This document shows, piece after piece, positions 39,001 to 51,000 of a stretch of DNA of 64,000 nucleotides (the stretch's first letter is position 1; every line of letters begins with the position of its first letter). Source of the stretch: Candidatus Woesearchaeota archaeon CG1_02_57_44 (GTDB lineage Archaea; Nanobdellota; Nanobdellia; Woesearchaeales; CG1-02-57-44); NCBI GenBank assembly GCA_001871415.1, contig MNWW01000067.1, positions 1 to 64,000 on the forward strand. Direction: 5' to 3'. A program made the position numbers.

Positions 39001-42000
39001 CTCGTCAAGGTTGCCCGCAATCTCGGGCGCATGGCCATTGCGCTCCACGATGACGTCCCTGCCATCGTCGCTCATGGTCACCATCTTCGACCAGGAATAA
39101 GCGAATTTCAGGCGCCAGCCGGTGATGTCAAGGGGCTTCACGCGGTGGGGGACTGCGGTGAAGTTCTTATAGTTTGTGACGCTTATACATCCTGCTTTTT
39201 GTGGGGTCATGCGTATTGCCGACTGTCTTCACGCCCGTCGTATCAGCCGCTGCACATCGGGAACGCGGTTGGTGAGTCTTGTCAACAGCGATGCCCTTGA
39301 CGCTTCCATACGTGTGAGATCCTCCAGATCATAGAGCAGTATGCCTTGCTGCTGCGCGTAGGCAGCGGCTCTCAGGGTGTAGGTGCTGTTGGTGAGCATC
39401 TCCGCGCGCTTTCCTGGCACGCTGAGCAGCGAGAGCTGGCTGGCGAACTTGGCCACCTCGTCCAGGCCCACCTCATCGGATGTCCGATACTTGCACTCGG
39501 CAAAGCGCTCGTGCAGGCGCACACGATACACCAGGTCTATCTGGACTTTCATCTTATCTATAGTATAGAGCACATTGTGCCGGACTCCGCGATATCCTGC
39601 GTCCCGATAAAGTTGAGCGCAATAGCGCTCGAAGCGCTGTCCCATGGTGCTGGTCGCCTTGCGCGCAGAGCCCACAGTCGCACATGGCTTCTTGCTGCAA
39701 GCACGTCTTGGCGTATGATGGCCCATACATTCTCGATGACCGAGGTGCTTAAACAACCCTTTGGGAAAGAAAGCGGATGGGTTGCGGGATGGGCGGAAAA
39801 CTTCTTAACTATGACGCGGATTCCACTGCCATGCGTCTTGAGGATGTGGTCGTTTCTGAATCCGATGGTCTTAGACGCCTGGGCAAAGGCCGGGCGGCGA
39901 CGGTCTATCTGGTCCCGACGAATGGGCATGCTGCTGGTGGCGCGCATGATCAGGTAGGGCGCCCCAGAAGTGCAGGGCACATGGTTCTCAAACGCTTCTC
40001 TGGGCATGATTCGCTCACGTCGCTGGTCAATGTGCTCTGCAGCGGCGCGCCGAACCACTACGCATGGAATCCTGACGCCATCGAGTCGGCTCATCATGTC
40101 AGGACCATCCTGGGCATGCTGGTCCCGTTCTGGACCGAGGAGCGCATGAGCGTGGCTGCTTCATATGGATATTCATTCAATGACGAGAACAATTGCTTTC
40201 AATTGCATTGCGACTATGTAGATGGCAGGCACGCGGCGCTCCATCATCCTTTCTCCGCAAGCCGTGAACAAGAACTGCCTGAGCTACGTACGTTGCTTAG
40301 GGACCTGGAATCCACGCTGCCGGACTGGAGTTTTTCTGGTGCTGTGTGGCAGGCAGGCAAGGGGCATCCCCTGGGTATAGGCAATTTCATGAACGAGGAA
40401 GGCGAAGACGGCAGATGGGTCTGGGTCGATCTGGAATCAGGGGTGCCTGCGCTATTCCCGCTCGATCCTGTCACCTTGCTCACCTATTATCTTCCTCGGG
40501 CCTTTGCGGCAGGGAGGCCACTGTTCGATGATGTGGACGCCGAGCTGCTGATGTCCCAGGTGAGCTCGCACGATGCGCTGCATGAGTACCTTGGTCCTGC
40601 GCAGATCTATACCGTCGGGGTGATGCCCGGAACGCTGCCCTAGCTGCATGAGTACCTTGGTCCTGCGCAGATGGACCAGTTGCAGGGGACTGTCAGCGAA
40701 CTTGCGCTCTCCCAAGCAGCATGGAAGGGCAAGAGCAGATTGCAGAATTCCATCTCCTACCAACAGCATCGCGGTGGCATATCCGAAAGACAGGCAGCAT
40801 GGTATGAGCAGCATCCTGTACGCTGGTATGCCCGCGAAGGAACGAGGCTCACGGGAAAAGCGATACGATATGTATCCCTTGACGTCCCGGGCAAGGCCTG
40901 GCAAGGGCTCGTCAATGCTGCCAGACAGTTCCTGCCTGCTGCCAGGCATTGGGGCCGCTGCGTCGTCTCCAGCCCCTATCGGATGCAGGCGCTGCATGAT
41001 TACGTCGATGATCGCATAACCTTCTGGGAGGGACGCAAGCAGCTATCCGCTGATGAGGCAGCGCATCTTCGCTCGCAGCTGACCCAGGAACATACGAGCT
41101 CATTCATCACGGACGTGATGGGCCAGGCGCTGCTCAAGCCGCTGGAAGCTCTGTTGTTTCCTTCATTGGCCACGGCACTATATTCCTCTGGTGTCATCGA
41201 TGAGGCGCAGGCCGGAGCGCTTGTTGTCGCAGGAGGTTCCATCTCCCGCTCTGCTTATACAATGGTGCGCATGCTGCAGGACAGGTCCAGTAGGAAAGGT
41301 CCTGCTGATGCTGCATCCCCCGGTGATGAGAACAGCCGCGGGTTCATCGGCAGATTCCTTGACAATAGGGGGGTCGCGCTGCTCTGGGGGGCTATCCCTA
41401 CTGCGGGCAATCTCGCCTACCCCTTGCAGATGGTCTACTCCGGCAGCACCTCCGACCATGACCTTGGCGCATTTCTCGTCTATGATGCCATGTCCCGTCT
41501 GGGCCGGAAGATCCCTATCTACGGCGGAGAGAACAGCGGCACAGAACATGCTCTATGCCGGCTGCCTGATGTGCTCGTGCGACAGAGAGGCCTGTCTACT
41601 GTGTCCATCTGTCAAGAAGTCTAGCAGGTAGTCTCTAGCACATCCATCTCGCCCGGAAGATGCCGCCAAAGAACCGTGCCACGCCTTTCAGTTTCGCCTT
41701 GGGCGAGAAGGCCCACTTGGACGCGCCGTGCAGGCGCGCACCAAAGTCGACCGGGAATTCCGTGATGGCATAGTGCGCGCGCTTCGCTTTGGCCAGGAGG
41801 TAGAGGTCCAGGGAGAAATCCTTTGGCGCATCGTCGAGCAATGCGAGCAATTCCCTTGGAAACACTTTCGGCTGAGCGTTTATCTCATGCAGCCATGATA
41901 GGAACACGACGCTGGCGAGCGCGCCATAGCACCAGGTGAAGACGGCGTCGATTGGCTTTCTGCCTTTGCGCGCGCCTTTGACCAGGTGCTTGGTCATCTG

Positions 42001-48000: not shown

Positions 48001-51000
48001 TGAGCATATCGTACGCATGTTCCCTGATGGGGAATTCGTCTTCATCTGCAACAGTGAGCATCTCGCGACGACACCGCTGCGGCGTGTGCTCAAGCGTGTC
48101 GCTCCTGGATGCACCATTGTGGAGATAGCGCCGCACAAGAAAGGACCTGTGTATGCGGTGCTGCAGGCGGCGGAGCATATAGCTGATGATGAAGAGGTCG
48201 TCGTGAACTACTGCGACTTTGGCTGGCATTGGGACTACGATGACTTTTGCAGCTTTGTCGCGCGCCCAGAGGTCGAGGGGTGCATTCCCTCCTACAAGGG
48301 CTTTCATCCCCATAGTCTCGGCACGACGTACTACGCCTATCTCAAGGTGGACGCGTCCGACCGGCTCCTGGAGCTGCGCGAGAAGGAATCTTTCACTGAC
48401 GAACGCATGCAGGAATACGCGTCATCAGGGACCTATTATTTCAAGAAAGGCGCCCACGTCAAAAAGTATTTTCAGCAGGCCATGGATGAGGGCGTGCAGA
48501 AGAACGGTGAATACTATGTCAGCCTGGTCTACAACCTGATGAGCGCTGACGGGTTGAAGGTCTTTGCCTACGAGATACCATACTTCCTCCAGTGGGGGAC
48601 GCCTGAAGATCTGATGGAATATCTCTCGTGGTCGAATGCGTTCCGGCTCACAGCGCAGATCCGCGACGGAACGTTGCTGGAGGAATCGTTGAGCGCTGTC
48701 AGCTGGATGGCTGGCGCAGGAGAGCGGCCCTTCCAGCTGCTGGAAGACAAGCCCGTGTTCGTGGAGTCATTGCTCAGTTTTCCCAAAGCCGCGCGTTATA
48801 TCTTCGTGCTCGATGACACGCAACGTCTGTACGGCGAGCGCATCGGCATACACTTCCCGGGGGCACAGATCTGCTCAGTAGATGAAGCGACCGGCGCTGA
48901 TGGGGCGAAGGGCGTGCTCTCAGATGCCCATGCTCATGGCGCTGTCTTGCTGGCTCCCTGGGATAAGCTCTGCTGGTGGGATCTGCATGTCTTCGTGAGC
49001 ATGGCTGACGCGCCACTGCTCTGGACGTTCTCCAACACGGTCAATCTGCGAAGGCATCCGACACGATACACGTTTCTGTCCACGGTGACATCGGGTGGAG
49101 TAAAGGTCGTGTCCGAGGAGGGGAAAGACGGTCGGGTGCCGAGCGACGCTCAGGATACGCAAGCGTATCTGGGCGCGGTGTTCCTGCCGCAGGTCAAGAA
49201 AGGCAAGCGATCCGCTGGCCAGGAAGAAAGCATCTCCTGGGAGGGCATGGCGTCAGGCGAAGCGACTGCCATCGCAGCGCTCGGCAAGCCGGGCGCCCGG
49301 CTTTTCCCTGTGGATAAATGCATCGAGCTGAGCACAGACGACGATGTCGCGACGTATCGCTACTGGTCGCGCTACTTTCGGCTGTGCGACCATCATCCGC
49401 GGTGAGTGCCCGCGTCACGCTGTATTCAACTGAAGTAATATATAGAAGCATGACCCTCCTATGCACCATGTCCGATGATAGTCATTCAGGCGCTGTACCT
49501 GCGCAGGCAGCGCCACGCATCATCGTGCATCGCGTCAATACCCTGCAGAAGCTGGCCTTGGTGCCTAAGCACTTCGGCGTGGAAGTGGATATCCGCACGC
49601 GTGATGGTGTCCTGGTCATGGACCACGAGCCATGGATGCAAAGCGCTGGTGGTATGGCTGATCAGGGTCCAGAGCAGAAAGACTCTGGCTCTTCGCGTCA
49701 AGGACCCGAACGCTTTGCGTCTCTGGTCGCGGCACTTGAGGGGCGCTTCATCGTCCTGAACCCGAAGGAAGATGGTCTACAAGACGCCATCCTCACGGTG
49801 CTGCGCAAACACGCAGTGACTGACTATTTCTTCCTGGACCTTCCTTTTCCCACTATCTGGCAACTGTGCCTCGCGGGAGAGCATAAGATTGCATTGCGCT
49901 TCTCCGAGCACGAGCCTCTTGAGGCAGTGCTTGCCATGAAGGGGCGGGCCGATTGGGTGTGGGTGGATACGTTCACACGACTGCCGCTGGACCGGCGCAG
50001 TCATGATGCGCTCCGCTCTGCGGGCTTCAAGCTCTGCCTGGTATGCCCGGAGCGATGGGGTAGGCCTGAAGACATCCCTATCTATCGTCGTCAGATGCTG
50101 GCAGAGGGGCTATGGGTCGATGCGGTCATGACTGCGCTGGAGCATGCGCAGGACTGGACAGCCCCTCTTGATGTCTCCGGGTTGCGGACAGGGGGGAAGC
50201 GCTGATGGCAGGCGAAGGCGACATGTACGGCAAGGGCTCACTGGATGGACAGATGAACAAGTTCGCGAAGGATCAGGAAAAAAATAATACGACAGATGAA
50301 GCGCCCGACAACGGCAAGGAGGAACCTGGGATACTACGGGCTGCGCTTCTTGACCTGGATCATACGCTCTATGACTATCGTCCTTGCCACGCCGCTGGCA
50401 TGCAGGCCATGCTGCAGCTGGCTGAAGAGAAACTTGGTCTGGATAAAGAGGGGTTCAGGACAGCATATCGTCAGGCGCAGGAAGAGAACAAGCGGCTGCT
50501 GGTGGGTACTGCCGCTGAGCACTCTCGTCTGCACTACGCGAAACTGATTGTAGAGTCTCTTCTCGACGAGACAGACGCCGCTCTTTGCCTCGCTATGGAG
50601 GAATCTTACTGGTCAGCGTACCTGGATGCCATGCAGCTGTATCCAGGTGTCTCGGATTTTCTTGACTATTGCAGAGAACAGTGGATCAGGACAGGTATCG
50701 TCACGAATCTGACCACTGCTATTCAGCTGCGAAAGATTCAGGCGCTTGGCATCGTTGTGGGTCTTGTCGTGACCAGCGAAGAAGCAGGAGTCGAGAAGCC
50801 AGAACCTGGCATATTCAAGCTCGCGCTGGACCGTATTGGCTGCCAGGCGCAAGAGGCGCTCTTCATCGGCGATGACGCACATCGCGACATAGCCGGAGCA
50901 AGAGCCATGGGTATGCGCGCGCGACAGATACACTCAGGCAAGGACTGGGATGACTGGAAGACGTTTCTTGAGTCCTGAGCAGGCTGCGTACCACGTTACG

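Follow-up and report, generated by a model that had tools for sequence, protein, structure and literature searches.

The 64,000-nucleotide stretch analysed here (the window, positions 1 to 64,000 of contig MNWW01000067.1 of Candidatus Woesearchaeota archaeon CG1_02_57_44) carries a real and conserved module of seven genes, a copy of a widespread and unstudied cassette that most likely makes an activated C5 ketose from ribulose phosphate, a sugar of the Calvin cycle, and puts it on the cell surface. To the full reading, in which a pentulofuranose is activated as a nucleotide sugar by the cassette and then added, on the outer side of the membrane, to a glycan of the surface, we give a probability of about 0.5. 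Xylulofuranose is known from bacterial and chlorovirus glycans, its donor genes being unknown in the literature, and a literature search returned no paper on this cassette; if true, the proposal would offer the first candidate route to a still-unknown class of ketose sugar donors.

Gene order and conservation of the cassette

The genome-wide survey's note had described six genes, all of which were found in place, but had left uncounted a second GT-C-like membrane protein (42450..44243, minus strand; 597 aa, nine hydrophobic segments, start codon uncertain). This gene and that of a soluble GT2 of the polyprenol-phosphate glycosyltransferase type (41635..42381, minus strand; 248 aa, PF00535) run in the opposite direction to the other five, from which they diverge. 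Sequence inspection of the divergent gap shows an AT-rich stretch with a TATA-like word (44215..44255, no strand assigned), a possible promoter at which a sigma-70 scan, whose coverage excludes archaeal promoters, gave nothing above chance. On the plus strand we find the GT-C–phosphoribulokinase (PRK) fusion gene (44273-46795, 840 aa), a class II (Zn) aldolase/epimerase-fold protein (46788..47903, 371 aa, PF00596), a tandem nucleotidyltransferase (NT; 47900..49405, 501 aa), a GDPD-fold phosphodiesterase (49450..50205, with 49468 as alternative start) and a HAD phosphatase (50205..50978). Three of the four junctions between them overlap, by 8, 4 and 1 nt, and the NT-GDPD gap is about 45 nt.

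Metagenomes yielded 80 loci with the fusion, and the 29 with at least 7 kb on both flanks, several of them near-identical kin, form the counted set. They contain the NT in 29 cases, the aldolase in 28, the GDPD in 28, the module-specific GT2 orthologue in 27, the HAD in 26 and a separate GtrA gene in 9, so that the linkage is not due to chance. It spans archaea, bacteria and viruses; of 38 viral loci (6-kb flanks, many cut), PRK was seen in 25 and HAD in only 14. A scan of GTDB with the kinase domain alone as query brought up seven loci, of which two hold the module. The cassette adjoins O-antigen or capsule genes, and plasmid copies also exist. An envelope glycosylation module outside carbon fixation is supported. 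Both Ru5P supply enzymes, RpiB and Rpe, are encoded in this 82%-complete genome, in which our search again gave no match to RuBisCO (its control being positive in 5/14) or to IF-2B/R15P-isomerase, as the note had reported.

Kinase, phosphatase and aldolase-fold protein

The case is built on observed features, that is, folds in predicted models, motifs, gene linkage, fusions and gene replacements. The Pfam PRK match of the fusion (aa 528-704, 109 bits) was reproduced, but the earlier claim that the kinase lacks the C-terminal half of PRK proved wrong. NF005655 spans aa 522-831 (profile positions 5-312 of 326; scoring 200 bits where the cut-off is 236), and 281 of 302 residues are matched in the comparison with solved PRK structures. 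The domain (aa 522-840, 45836..46795, plus strand) is thus a full-length phosphoribulokinase fold of the cyanobacterial/archaeal type, C-terminal domain included, and aligns better with PRKs (9qko, Z 28.8, rmsd 2.6, 281 aligned; 5b3f, Z 27.3) than with the uridine kinase 3asy (Z 20.9, 195 aligned). Passages on the M. hungatei PRK define the Ru5P/ATP-binding residues (PMC5241800) and others the catalytic Asp/His (PMC9978339). Transferred through the 5b3f alignment, they give the signature D560, H563, R567, Y606, H608, K659, R662, D663 and R667, complete in 56/56 cellular fusions, 25/25 viral kinases and 8/9 rows from alphaproteobacterial PRK loci, and in 0/29 weaker single-domain control rows. 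A pentulose 5-phosphate is therefore very probably the substrate, to judge from sequence. In 21 viral proteins PRK is joined to a soluble GT-A-like domain (fold label by eye), and P0027 is an aldolase-PRK fusion.

The best family of the HAD protein is the haloarchaeal RuBP 5-phosphatase NF053830 (198 bits, cut-off 330; next family 110), which is also best in 13 of 14 relatives, and action as a 5-phosphatase is probable. Passages of PMC9700705 give cyclised Ru1P as product of the haloarchaeal enzyme and place that HAD and an aldolase in a cleavage pathway. In the aldolase-fold protein E139, H143, H152, H154 and H217 occur in 54/54 sequences. RhaD-type bifunctional aldolases are its best NCBIfam match here and in 14/15 relatives, and the haloarchaeal Ru1P-aldolase model is absent among the 17 families listed. 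The invariant Glu is presumably of the FucA type and not the AraD-type Asp; a C4 epimerase of pentulose 1-phosphate is the proposed role, against which this Glu and the haloarchaeal cleavage pathway speak. No cassette component reaches a curated family cut-off, the aldolase scores lying far below it.

Variant loci replace parts of this front end. PRK, HAD and aldolase are absent, with NT, GT2 and GDPD kept, in 5 of 15 GDPD-selected loci. L170 and L171, without PRK and NT1 but with NT2, contain AraD (above cut-off), Rpe, a Pol-beta NT and a histidine phosphatase; joint absence of PRK and NT1 is expected if both serve one purpose. L172 has Rpe and a TIM barrel (EryC-like epimerase) 40% identical to one from an erythritol-type cluster, and L177 a kinase-aldolase-Rpe fusion. 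Two loci count against a fixed pathway: in L176 the fusion is present and aldolase and NT are absent within 20 kb, and L180 has the GDPD alone.

Paired nucleotidyltransferases, GDPD and membrane proteins

What had been called a 501-aa nucleotidyltransferase is one indeed, but of two domains, NT1 (aa 1-255) intact and NT2 (aa 273-499) decayed (316 and 19 bits; class scores NT1 380 and NT2 45). An intact NT2 gene lies on another contig of the same genome (G000:C48:43446-44351, minus strand; 280 bits; NT2 326 against NT1 144). L172 and L173 likewise have a decayed fused NT2 but keep an intact gene. The closest solved sequence to the tandem protein is 4evw (E 4e-8), and the NTs are putative homologues of BcbE (CDD BcbE-like). 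NT1 is nearest to sugar-1-phosphate nucleotidyltransferases; NT2 retains the nucleotide-binding motif and conserved residues of its own class, and the two separate on a tree. Both occur in all 34 NT-bearing viral loci and in 28/29 cellular loci, the latter count being partly circular because the profiles came from those same loci, many of them kin. Cellular loci also show NT2-GT2 and NT1-NT2-GT2 fusions (GT2 behind NT2 in L049, L058 and L171), nine viral loci a GDPD-NT1-NT2 fusion and L149 a GT61-GDPD-NT1-NT2 fusion.

The protein that the note had called GDPD-like by eye has no match in Pfam or NCBIfam, and the call is now backed by a predicted model (pLDDT 91) whose top Foldseek matches are GDPDs (E ~1e-6, TM ~0.6); its His, Glu, Asp, His and Lys motif residues occur in 44/44 sequences. 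Genes for 2H cyclic phosphodiesterases are found in seven loci. In five they separate the NT genes or immediately precede them (PF07823, E 8e-8 and 1.5e-10); these five, a minority of the 80 fusion loci, come from no more than two lineages. The other two loci are L170 and L171.

Twelve hydrophobic segments span aa 9-507 of the fusion, in line with the note, and the predicted model upholds a GT-C fold. Its conserved domain (aa 108-520, 44594..45832, plus strand) is ALG3/PIG-M/GT87-like by VIA-align (Z 26.3 to ALG3, 26.2 to GPI-MT-I, 24.3 to ALG6, 22.0 to GPI transamidase chain U) and by family matches among 38 fusion members (GT87 7, Alg6 4, ALG3 3). Its role as final transferase is doubtful, because no acid is conserved in external loop 1 (position 133 is acidic in 23/56 and His here) and the cassette usually has a further membrane protein, itself variable, beside it. 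Family-wide catalysis by this domain is a tentative idea, with odds somewhat below even; it might act through a non-standard site or only bind the lipid donor. The three or four extra helices at aa 1-106 (44273..44590, plus strand; pLDDT 41-61) lie where relatives P0004-P0006 have GtrA (PF04138), a candidate identity; BLASTP gave no significant match to P0006, and PF04138 matches neither g01142, as noted before, nor anything else in this genome. The second GT-C-like protein, with a weak Agl23 match (E 1e-4), no Pfam match and Asp-Glu in its first long loop, is a candidate acceptor-specific transferase. In 26/29 loci the cassette has a variable, TM-rich ORF no more than 2.5 kb away; among 2000 windows drawn at random from this genome the figure is 721. 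Only 7/24 such second proteins match a GT-C family, and a rough test for Asp-Glu/Pro in the loop is passed by 8/29 loci. The GT2, whose best NCBIfam model is ArnC (E 2e-14, far below cut-off), is the proposed NDP-ketose:polyprenyl-phosphate transferase.

A proposed route to a pentulofuranose donor and its alternatives

In the proposed route, for which we infer every substrate, the stereochemistry and the order of the steps from aldolase to NT2, the PRK domain would phosphorylate D-ribulose 5-phosphate on C1 to RuBP and the HAD would take off the 5-phosphate, which frees the C5-OH and lets the ketose close to a furanose. The aldolase-fold protein would invert C4 by retro-aldol/aldol chemistry, converting D-ribulose 1-phosphate to the L-xylulose form, or would only salvage, the product remaining D-ribulose; that solved xylulose residues are mostly D counts against inversion, because it would give L. 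NT1 would then form NDP-1-pentulose. Ketoses are anomeric at C2, so that an NDP on C1 is non-anomeric and therefore unusable by the GT2 as glycosyl donor. A remedy is suggested by relatives, with their two co-occurring NT classes, GDPD-NT1-NT2 fusions and 2H genes: the GDPD-fold protein is proposed as a cyclase/phosphomutase moving the phosphate from C1 to C2: the 2-OH would displace NMP to give a 1,2-cyclic phosphate, to be opened (in some loci by the 2H enzyme) to the anomeric 2-phosphate, from which NT2 would make the true donor, NDP-2-pentulofuranose. Such a shift through a cyclic phosphate is an even bet, and since GDPDs act on phosphodiesters and not on pyrophosphates such as NDP-sugars, it stretches their chemistry; a pentulofuranoside as product is rather more likely. 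The GT2 would transfer the sugar to polyprenyl phosphate, a flippase (GtrA or another) would export it and a GT-C would pass it on, with the choice of acceptor most likely made by the variable second GT-C. The note's route from Ru5P through RuBP, Ru1P and NDP-pentulose to polyprenyl phosphate thus keeps its front end, its envelope setting outside carbon fixation and its GT2/GT-C delivery, but not the one-step activation of Ru1P; it had left the GDPD without a role and missed the paired NT classes. The NDP-heptose pathway has a similar logic, in which a kinase, the HAD phosphatase GmhB and a nucleotidyltransferase shift the phosphate from the distal end of the sugar to C1; there, however, C1 of the aldose is anomeric, unlike that of a ketose, and the cassette has, in addition, a phosphodiesterase and two NT classes instead of one.

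Glycerol cyclic phosphates are natural GDPD products, as would suit an unlikely variant in which the same front end leads to an aldolase that splits Ru1P to DHAP and glycolaldehyde, or recombines the pieces, followed by activation of a C2, C3 or branched C5 unit, in place of a straight pentulose, by the NTs and GDPD. The invariant Glu139 and Zn histidines, the RhaD-type best models, the HAD-aldolase fusion in ten viral loci and the demonstrated cleavage of RuBP via Ru1P by HAD and class II aldolase (passages of PMC9700705) speak for it. Yet the haloarchaeal aldolase model is missing among the listed families, true epimerases replace the aldolase in variants that keep the back end, DHAP made via kinase and phosphatase is costly, and a polyprenol-phosphate GT2 and GT61 need a cyclic sugar whose leaving group sits on the anomeric carbon. 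A little less probable again is the note's literal route, with NDP-1-pentulose as end product and, like CDP-ribitol, phospho-sugar donor for phosphodiester-linked units, the GDPD trimming or recycling and the NT pair a structural duplication. It requires fewer new reactions and agrees with the affinity of NT1 and the decay of NT2 in this fusion, but not with the retained NT2 motif and residues, the intact NT2 gene kept where the fused copy decays or the NT2-GT2 fusions; moreover, the partner transferases are glycosyl- and not phosphotransferases, and none of the latter was recognised by eye among recurrent neighbour clusters.

Another ketose (fructose, tagatose, sedoheptulose or tetrulose), with shifted kinase and HAD specificity and the phosphate-shift logic intact, is improbable: scores under all cut-offs, the FBP-aldolase-like domain of L177, allulose-6-P-epimerase-like scores in L172 and the known multi-gene fructose side-chain systems (BcbE/BcbG, PMC13552107) leave room for it, against the full PRK signature, the RuBP-specific nearest relative of the HAD and the pentulose-phosphate enzymes AraD and Rpe in variants. 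A membrane-anchored uridine kinase of nucleoside salvage, or a carbon-fixation PRK, lying by chance among envelope genes is very improbable and largely refuted. Sources do label relatives 'uridine kinase' and PF00485 spans both families, but the uridine-kinase model gives 71 bits against 200 for PRK, the PRK-specific C-terminal domain is present, control kinases lack the signature, RuBisCO is unmatched (control 5/14) and six glycosylation genes are linked across archaea, bacteria and viruses.

The preferred pentulofuranose route can be set beside other known systems. Extracytoplasmic glycosylation by the three components GtrA, GtrB and GT-C, in its pentofuranose version (Kelly et al. 2024, passages of PMC11127046), shares a polyprenyl-phosphate sugar synthase, a small flippase and a GT-C, but relies on a UbiA-type synthase that draws on PRPP, and makes aldopentoses, whereas the cassette has a GT2 with its own six-activity nucleotide-sugar pathway and two GT-C-fold proteins, one fused to a kinase; the Discussion passage of that paper does not mention ketoses. 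Plant, cyanobacterial and methanogen-type PRKs (NF005655; 9qko, 6kev, 5b3f) share with the cassette kinase, of putative activity, the whole fold, catalytic Asp/His and Ru5P/ATP residues, but not its fusion to GT-C (cells) or the GT-A-like domain (viruses) or its lack of a RuBisCO partner. The haloarchaeal non-carboxylating pentose bisphosphate pathway (passages of PMC9700705) likewise has a HAD of the same subfamily beside a class II aldolase and a Ru1P intermediate; it is catabolic, with RuBP from R15P isomerase, whereas in the cassette a kinase would make the RuBP, the aldolase belongs to a different subfamily and the product would go on to nucleotidyltransferases. Capsule fructose side-chain systems (P. 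multocida BcbE/BcbG, E. coli K4 KfoE, C. jejuni HS1.08), whose donor chemistry is not given in the source passages, are cytoplasmic and use a hexulose, unlike the cassette; their genes are genetically required for the addition of a ketofuranose, the kind of sugar that the cassette would add.

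A conserved cassette around a kinase fused to a membrane protein

The cassette, which is real, conserved and previously uncharacterised, comprises seven genes in the window. The positions assigned to six of them in the genome-wide survey's note were confirmed, as was the composition described there for the 840-aa fusion protein (44273-46795, plus strand), which carries 12 hydrophobic segments (aa 9-507) and a Pfam phosphoribulokinase (PRK) match at aa 528-704. The five plus-strand genes, encoding the fusion, a class II aldolase, a 501-aa tandem of two nucleotidyltransferase classes (NT1 and NT2), a GDPD-like protein and a HAD protein, are tightly packed, and the GT2 and the seventh gene (42450-44243, minus strand; 597 aa, 9 hydrophobic segments) are transcribed in the opposite direction. 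A promoter and terminator scan of the cassette region gave no more than chance level. The genome is of 1.53 Mb and 82% complete, and the adjoining genes look archaeal by eye. A further GT-C gene (36270-38036, minus strand; PMT_2, E 6e-15), 3.6 kb from the cassette, is a candidate acceptor transferase. Two plus-strand ORFs of 288 and 317 aa at 39777-41624, with 27 nt between them and no Pfam match, could be one split gene. Beyond the cassette there is a row of 10 N (52199-52208), and a plus-strand ORF of 1135 aa (55598-59005) could be placed in no family by eye.

Among the best 80 of 496 metagenome relatives, 29 loci, several of them close kin, had at least 7 kb on either side. NT genes were found in all 29, the aldolase and GDPD genes in 28 each, the GT2 in 27, the HAD gene in 26 and a separate GtrA gene in 9; GtrA is also fused in the related proteins P0004-P0006, and BLASTP detected no GtrA relic in aa 1-116 of the fusion. 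A search of three phyla with a GDPD alignment, chosen to avoid selection on the fusion, matched 6/401, 6/401 and 4/401 genomes. The 15 stretches selected in this way, own genome left out, held the fusion in five cases, a sister cassette in three, and NT, GT2 and GDPD genes without module-type PRK, HAD or aldolase in five, the remainder being one incomplete stretch and one with GDPD alone.

The sister cassette (loci L041-L048, L174, L183 and L184, fetched from other genomes) has a divergent GDPD-like gene, a beta-PGM-like HAD and two or three NT domains, often together with cupin and WavE genes, and lacks PRK and aldolase; in L041 it comes after erythritol-type catabolic genes. The idea that the PRK-less cassette is simply a fructose version was rejected in view of its HAD subfamily and of its up to three NT-like domains. 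Two sister cassettes compared by blastn with E. coli genomes gave no match at DNA-level sensitivity. By annotation alone, CJSA_1357-1362 of C. jejuni IA3902 resembles the sister cassette, and the accessible passages of PMC7901785 report that no extra capsule was seen.

In the structural model, aa 108-520 of the fusion are matched by ALG3 (Z 26.3, rmsd 3.6, 331 residues aligned) and GPI-MT-I (Z 26.2, rmsd 3.9, 348 aligned), followed by ALG6 (Z 24.3), GPI transamidase chain U (22.0), ArnT (19.1) and PimE (18.8), and the region is predicted to have a GT-C membrane fold; at the sequence level, a search with the profile of this domain matched no solved GT-C. The domain is kept in archaea and bacteria at 25-53% identity to the window copy. 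GT-Cs usually conserve a catalytic acid in external loop 1, and PIG-U is not known to be catalytic. Here, the first external loop (aa 126-169) holds an acidic residue in at most 23 of 56 sequences at any column, position 133, the likeliest catalytic place, is His in the window, and D228 and D267 are invariant elsewhere in the domain.

In 26 of the 29 well-flanked loci, another TM-rich ORF is located no more than 2.5 kb away, compared with 721 of 2000 windows placed at random in this genome. These second proteins (n=36) fall into 22 BLAST clusters; seven of the 24 scanned gave a match to PMT_2 or YfhO, and a single Wzy is among them. The window's second GT-C-like protein shows an Asp-Glu within its first long loop, a crude loop test passed by 8 of the 29 loci. 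Because the partner is variable, as an acceptor-specific transferase should look, the suggestion is that this is its role.

The kinase domain and the other soluble enzymes

The cyanobacterial PRK model of NCBIfam, NF005655, matches fusion aa 522-831 over positions 5-312 of its 326, with a score of 200.3 bits that stays below the curated cut-off of 236. A model of the fusion built from a 26-row alignment (pLDDT 82) superposes on 9qko (Z 28.8, rmsd 2.6, 281 residues aligned) and 5b3f (Z 27.3, rmsd 2.9, 275 aligned), and on uridine kinase with Z 20.9 over 195 residues, Foldseek being concordant. The nearest solved structure, 9qko/9qkn, was released in 2026 as a 'cyanobacteria specific PRK'. The domain is thereby modelled with both the P-loop kinase fold and the C-terminal domain of PRKs, and the earlier caveat that the kinase lacks the PRK C-terminal half turned out to be wrong, since both the nearly whole-length NF005655 match and the structural matches cover it.

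Residues named in the accessible parts of PMC5241800 and PMC9978339 were mapped through the 5b3f alignment with a His-tag offset of 20. The passages of PMC5241800 list H55, R59, Y98, H100, K151 and R154 as Ru5P/ATP residues of MhPRK; the catalytic Asp/His and the Ru5P/ATP positions of the fusion are D560, H563, R567, Y606, H608, K659 and R662, which, together with D663 and R667, are kept in all 56 fusions that remain after de-duplication and have a length of at least 620 aa. An equivalent of MhPRK R62 is absent, a residue described in the same passages of PMC5241800 as not conserved across all PRKs. All 25 viral kinases and eight of the nine rows taken from PRK loci of alphaproteobacteria carry the signature too; none of the 29 control rows, weak single-domain kinase matches in the own phylum, has it.

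The HAD protein finds its best family in NF053830, the haloarchaeal RuBP 5-phosphatase (198 bits, cut-off 330, next family 110), as do the HADs of 13 of 14 relatives; as reported in passages of PMC9700705, this phosphatase is RuBP-specific and its product is cyclised Ru1P. Glu139 and four histidines of the aldolase are retained in 54/54 sequences, and RhaD-type models are the best matches of this protein, with weak scores, in 14 of 15 relatives; AraD is absent from the 17 family matches of the window aldolase, the genes of loci L170 and L171 passing the AraD cut-off. Neither Pfam nor NCBIfam gave a match for the GDPD-like protein. Its model (pLDDT 91) finds GDPDs as first structural matches and shows a TIM barrel with two His and a Glu-x-Asp, which we take to form the metal site. 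The GT2 (PF00535), with best matches of ArnC/PpgS type below cut-off, is predicted by sequence to be of the polyprenol-phosphate type.

Three other assignments were weighed for these enzymes. A uridine kinase, the common label of relatives, is contradicted by scores of 71 (cut-off 180) and 63 bits, by a C-terminal domain extra to the single domain of about 210 aa in that enzyme and by a signature unlike that of 29/29 controls, and the label is corrected here. Carbon fixation of the Calvin or RHP kind was rejected without a RuBisCO match, PF00016 having none in this 82%-complete genome (the control rang in 5/14); a PRK that would work outside carbon fixation is relevant to genome surveys that take PRK as a mark of autotrophy. 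The haloarchaeal catabolic pathway as a whole was likewise rejected: the R15P isomerase family (IF-2B, PF01008) has no match in the genome (control 9/14), the haloarchaeal Ru1P aldolase family NF053831 is absent from the matches of the window aldolase, and the NF053830 cut-off is not reached. RpiB and Rpe are present in the genome, in which RpiA found no match.

The proposed C1-to-C2 phosphate shift and route

The genome-wide survey's note had converted Ru1P into an NDP-pentulose in one step. As it stands, this step is not supported, because C1 of ribulose is not the anomeric carbon and an NDP attached there cannot act as a glycosyl donor. The NT domains, which carry generic NT labels only in database look-ups, split into two classes on a tree. 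Both classes occur in 28 of the 29 cellular loci, a count that is partly circular, and, independently, in 34/34 NT-bearing viral loci. The fused NT2 of the window is decayed (19 bits versus 316 for the NT1 domain), and an intact NT2 gene is encoded on contig C48 of this genome (43446-44351, minus strand; L129:7447-8352; 280 bits); a decayed fused NT2 with a separate intact one was found in L172 and L173 as well. GDPD, NT1 and NT2 are fused in nine viral loci, in L149 additionally with GT61, and the domain found fused to GT2 is NT2. Moreover, 2H phosphoesterases of the CPDase type accompany the NT genes in 5/80 fusion loci of two lineages and in L170 and L171, where PRK and NT1 are both absent and NT2 is kept. 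GDPDs act through cyclic phosphates, and after cleavage by a CPDase the phosphate stays at the anomeric carbon. It is from these five observations (paired NTs, decayed NT2, fusions, 2H proteins, and joint absence of PRK and NT1) that we infer the phosphate to be shifted to C2.

A few kb from the NT2 gene of C48 lie a GT2 and two polytopic genes that look like glycosyltransferases by eye (533 and 849 aa; L129:11388-17730); together they form another glycosylation island, from which the pathway may be completed in trans. The loci L170 (2833-10368) and L171 (2039-10104), from the own phylum, hold a GtrA-Rpe-Pol-beta NT-histidine phosphatase fusion together with the 2H protein, AraD, NT2, GT2 and GDPD, and the Pol-beta NT could put NMP on the C1-OH in a single step. 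In L172 (1755-10858) we find Rpe, a TIM barrel 40% identical to one of an erythritol-type cluster and, presumably, EryC-like, a Zn dehydrogenase and two radical SAM genes; L173 (1-4157) is a further variant. A 1293-aa fusion of kinase, FBP-aldolase-like and Rpe domains occurs in L177 (3475-10301). These replacement front ends all handle ketose phosphates, mostly pentuloses.

In the proposed route, PRK would convert Ru5P into RuBP, the HAD would release Ru1P, and the aldolase fold might epimerise it at C4 to L-xylulose 1-phosphate, the least certain step. NT1 would then form NDP-1-pentulose, from which the GDPD-fold enzyme would yield a 1,2-cyclic phosphate and NMP; the cycle would be opened to the 2-phosphate by the GDPD, sometimes by the 2H protein, and NT2 would produce NDP-2-pentulofuranose, to be loaded by the GT2 on polyprenyl phosphate, flipped and transferred by a GT-C. 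The observations cover folds, motifs, linkage, fusions and replacements; the substrates and step order are deduced. Several points speak against the mechanism: every family score is below cut-off, GDPDs do not usually act on a pyrophosphate, cleavage by the aldolase is possible, the loci L176 and L180 are incomplete, GtrA has no match in this genome, and the solved xyluloses of E. coli and Devosia are D in the passages available of PMC7685785 and PMC8707391. We give the whole route from Ru5P to a surface pentulofuranose a probability of about 0.5.

The outline is that of a variant of nucleotide-sugar synthesis with three-component glycosylation, and the activation chemistry, if shown, would be new. 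It is tentatively proposed that phosphorylation of a ketose at its non-anomeric C1 by a repurposed PRK, nucleotidylation, cyclisation by GDPD, opening at C2 and a second nucleotidylation make up a new activation mode, with NT1-GDPD-NT2 as a portable ketofuranose module, a reading to which we give slightly less than even odds. The front ends swapped in such a module might be PRK/HAD/aldolase, AraD/Rpe/Pol-beta NT or EryC-like/Rpe, and its exchangeable transferases could, with the same reserve, be GT2/GtrA/GT-C in cells and, in giant viruses, enzymes of the GT61 and GT-A types.

Possible links to glycans, mobility and viral versions

Delivery by the cassette would be like that of Gtr-type systems, with a GtrB-like polyprenol-phosphate GT2, and of the PRPP-based pentofuranose systems (GT136, PPPRS), both as described in parts of PMC11127046; the cassette falls outside the PRPP-based group, having no UbiA-type polyprenyl phosphoribose synthase among its seven genes. 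Xylulofuranose and fructofuranose are found in O-antigens, capsules and chlorovirus glycans. Passages of a review (PMC7685785) state that genes for the xylulose donor of E. coli O-antigens were not found, and fructose side chains genetically require BcbE/BcbG (PMC13552107), KfoE and HS1.08 (PMC8858990, PMC7901785, PMC11924219), according to excerpts of these works. The accessible parts of the literature on K4, C. jejuni HS1, P. multocida B and chloroviruses contain no donor chemistry, and those of PMC5408694 and PMC12409901 nothing further. Searches of the open-access literature turned up no account of the cassette, nor of any pathway to a ketofuranose donor. The cassette is a concrete candidate for a donor route, with six soluble activities and simple commercial inputs (Ru5P, ATP, NTPs). 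Xylulofuranose has been reported in chlorovirus glycans (PMC9614988) and Devosia (PMC8707391), where, as far as the available text goes, mild acid cleaves the xylulose bond, and standard glycan work-ups could therefore miss the product. If the route is true, acid-labile pentulose decorations would be far commoner than the few solved structures indicate (5168 GDPD-related protein clusters), and would occur on polyprenyl-linked glycans of some DPANN archaea. A search for homologues starting from Azospirillum gave 5168 matches, and among the 120 listed no species that bears xylulose was named; none of the comparisons made tied the cassette to a solved glycan.

The complete cassette is present on plasmids of Azospirillum brasilense, E. 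coli and Hirschia baltica. In E. coli (L039, NZ_CP145712.1:6022-14984) it sits whole on a 33-kb IncR plasmid near IS26. By blastn, a 3.9-kb part of it was found in 2 of 5426 E. coli genomes, both times on plasmids, and it appears to have moved recently, because the copy on the second plasmid, from a frog isolate, is 100% identical. Being mobile on plasmids, giant viruses and phages, the cassette may switch surface antigens and phage receptors.

The 38 viral loci hold NT in 34, aldolase in 31, PRK in 25 and HAD in 14 cases. The membrane domain and the GT2 were seen just twice, and soluble transferases, of the GT61 type among others, stand in for them. In 21 viral PRK proteins (L132-L169; e.g., L134:571-1953 and L149:287-3688) a soluble N-terminal domain of 200 aa shows glycosyltransferase-like motifs without Pfam match, so that PRK stands behind a transferase-fold domain in cells and viruses alike. 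The kinase compared by tblastn with named phages gave six weak and partial matches. Scanning GTDB with the kinase domain alone gave seven loci, five of them ordinary PRK loci, and in L003-L006 (Magnetovibrio/Rhodospirillales) two PRK genes of unlike type lie within 10 kb at each locus.
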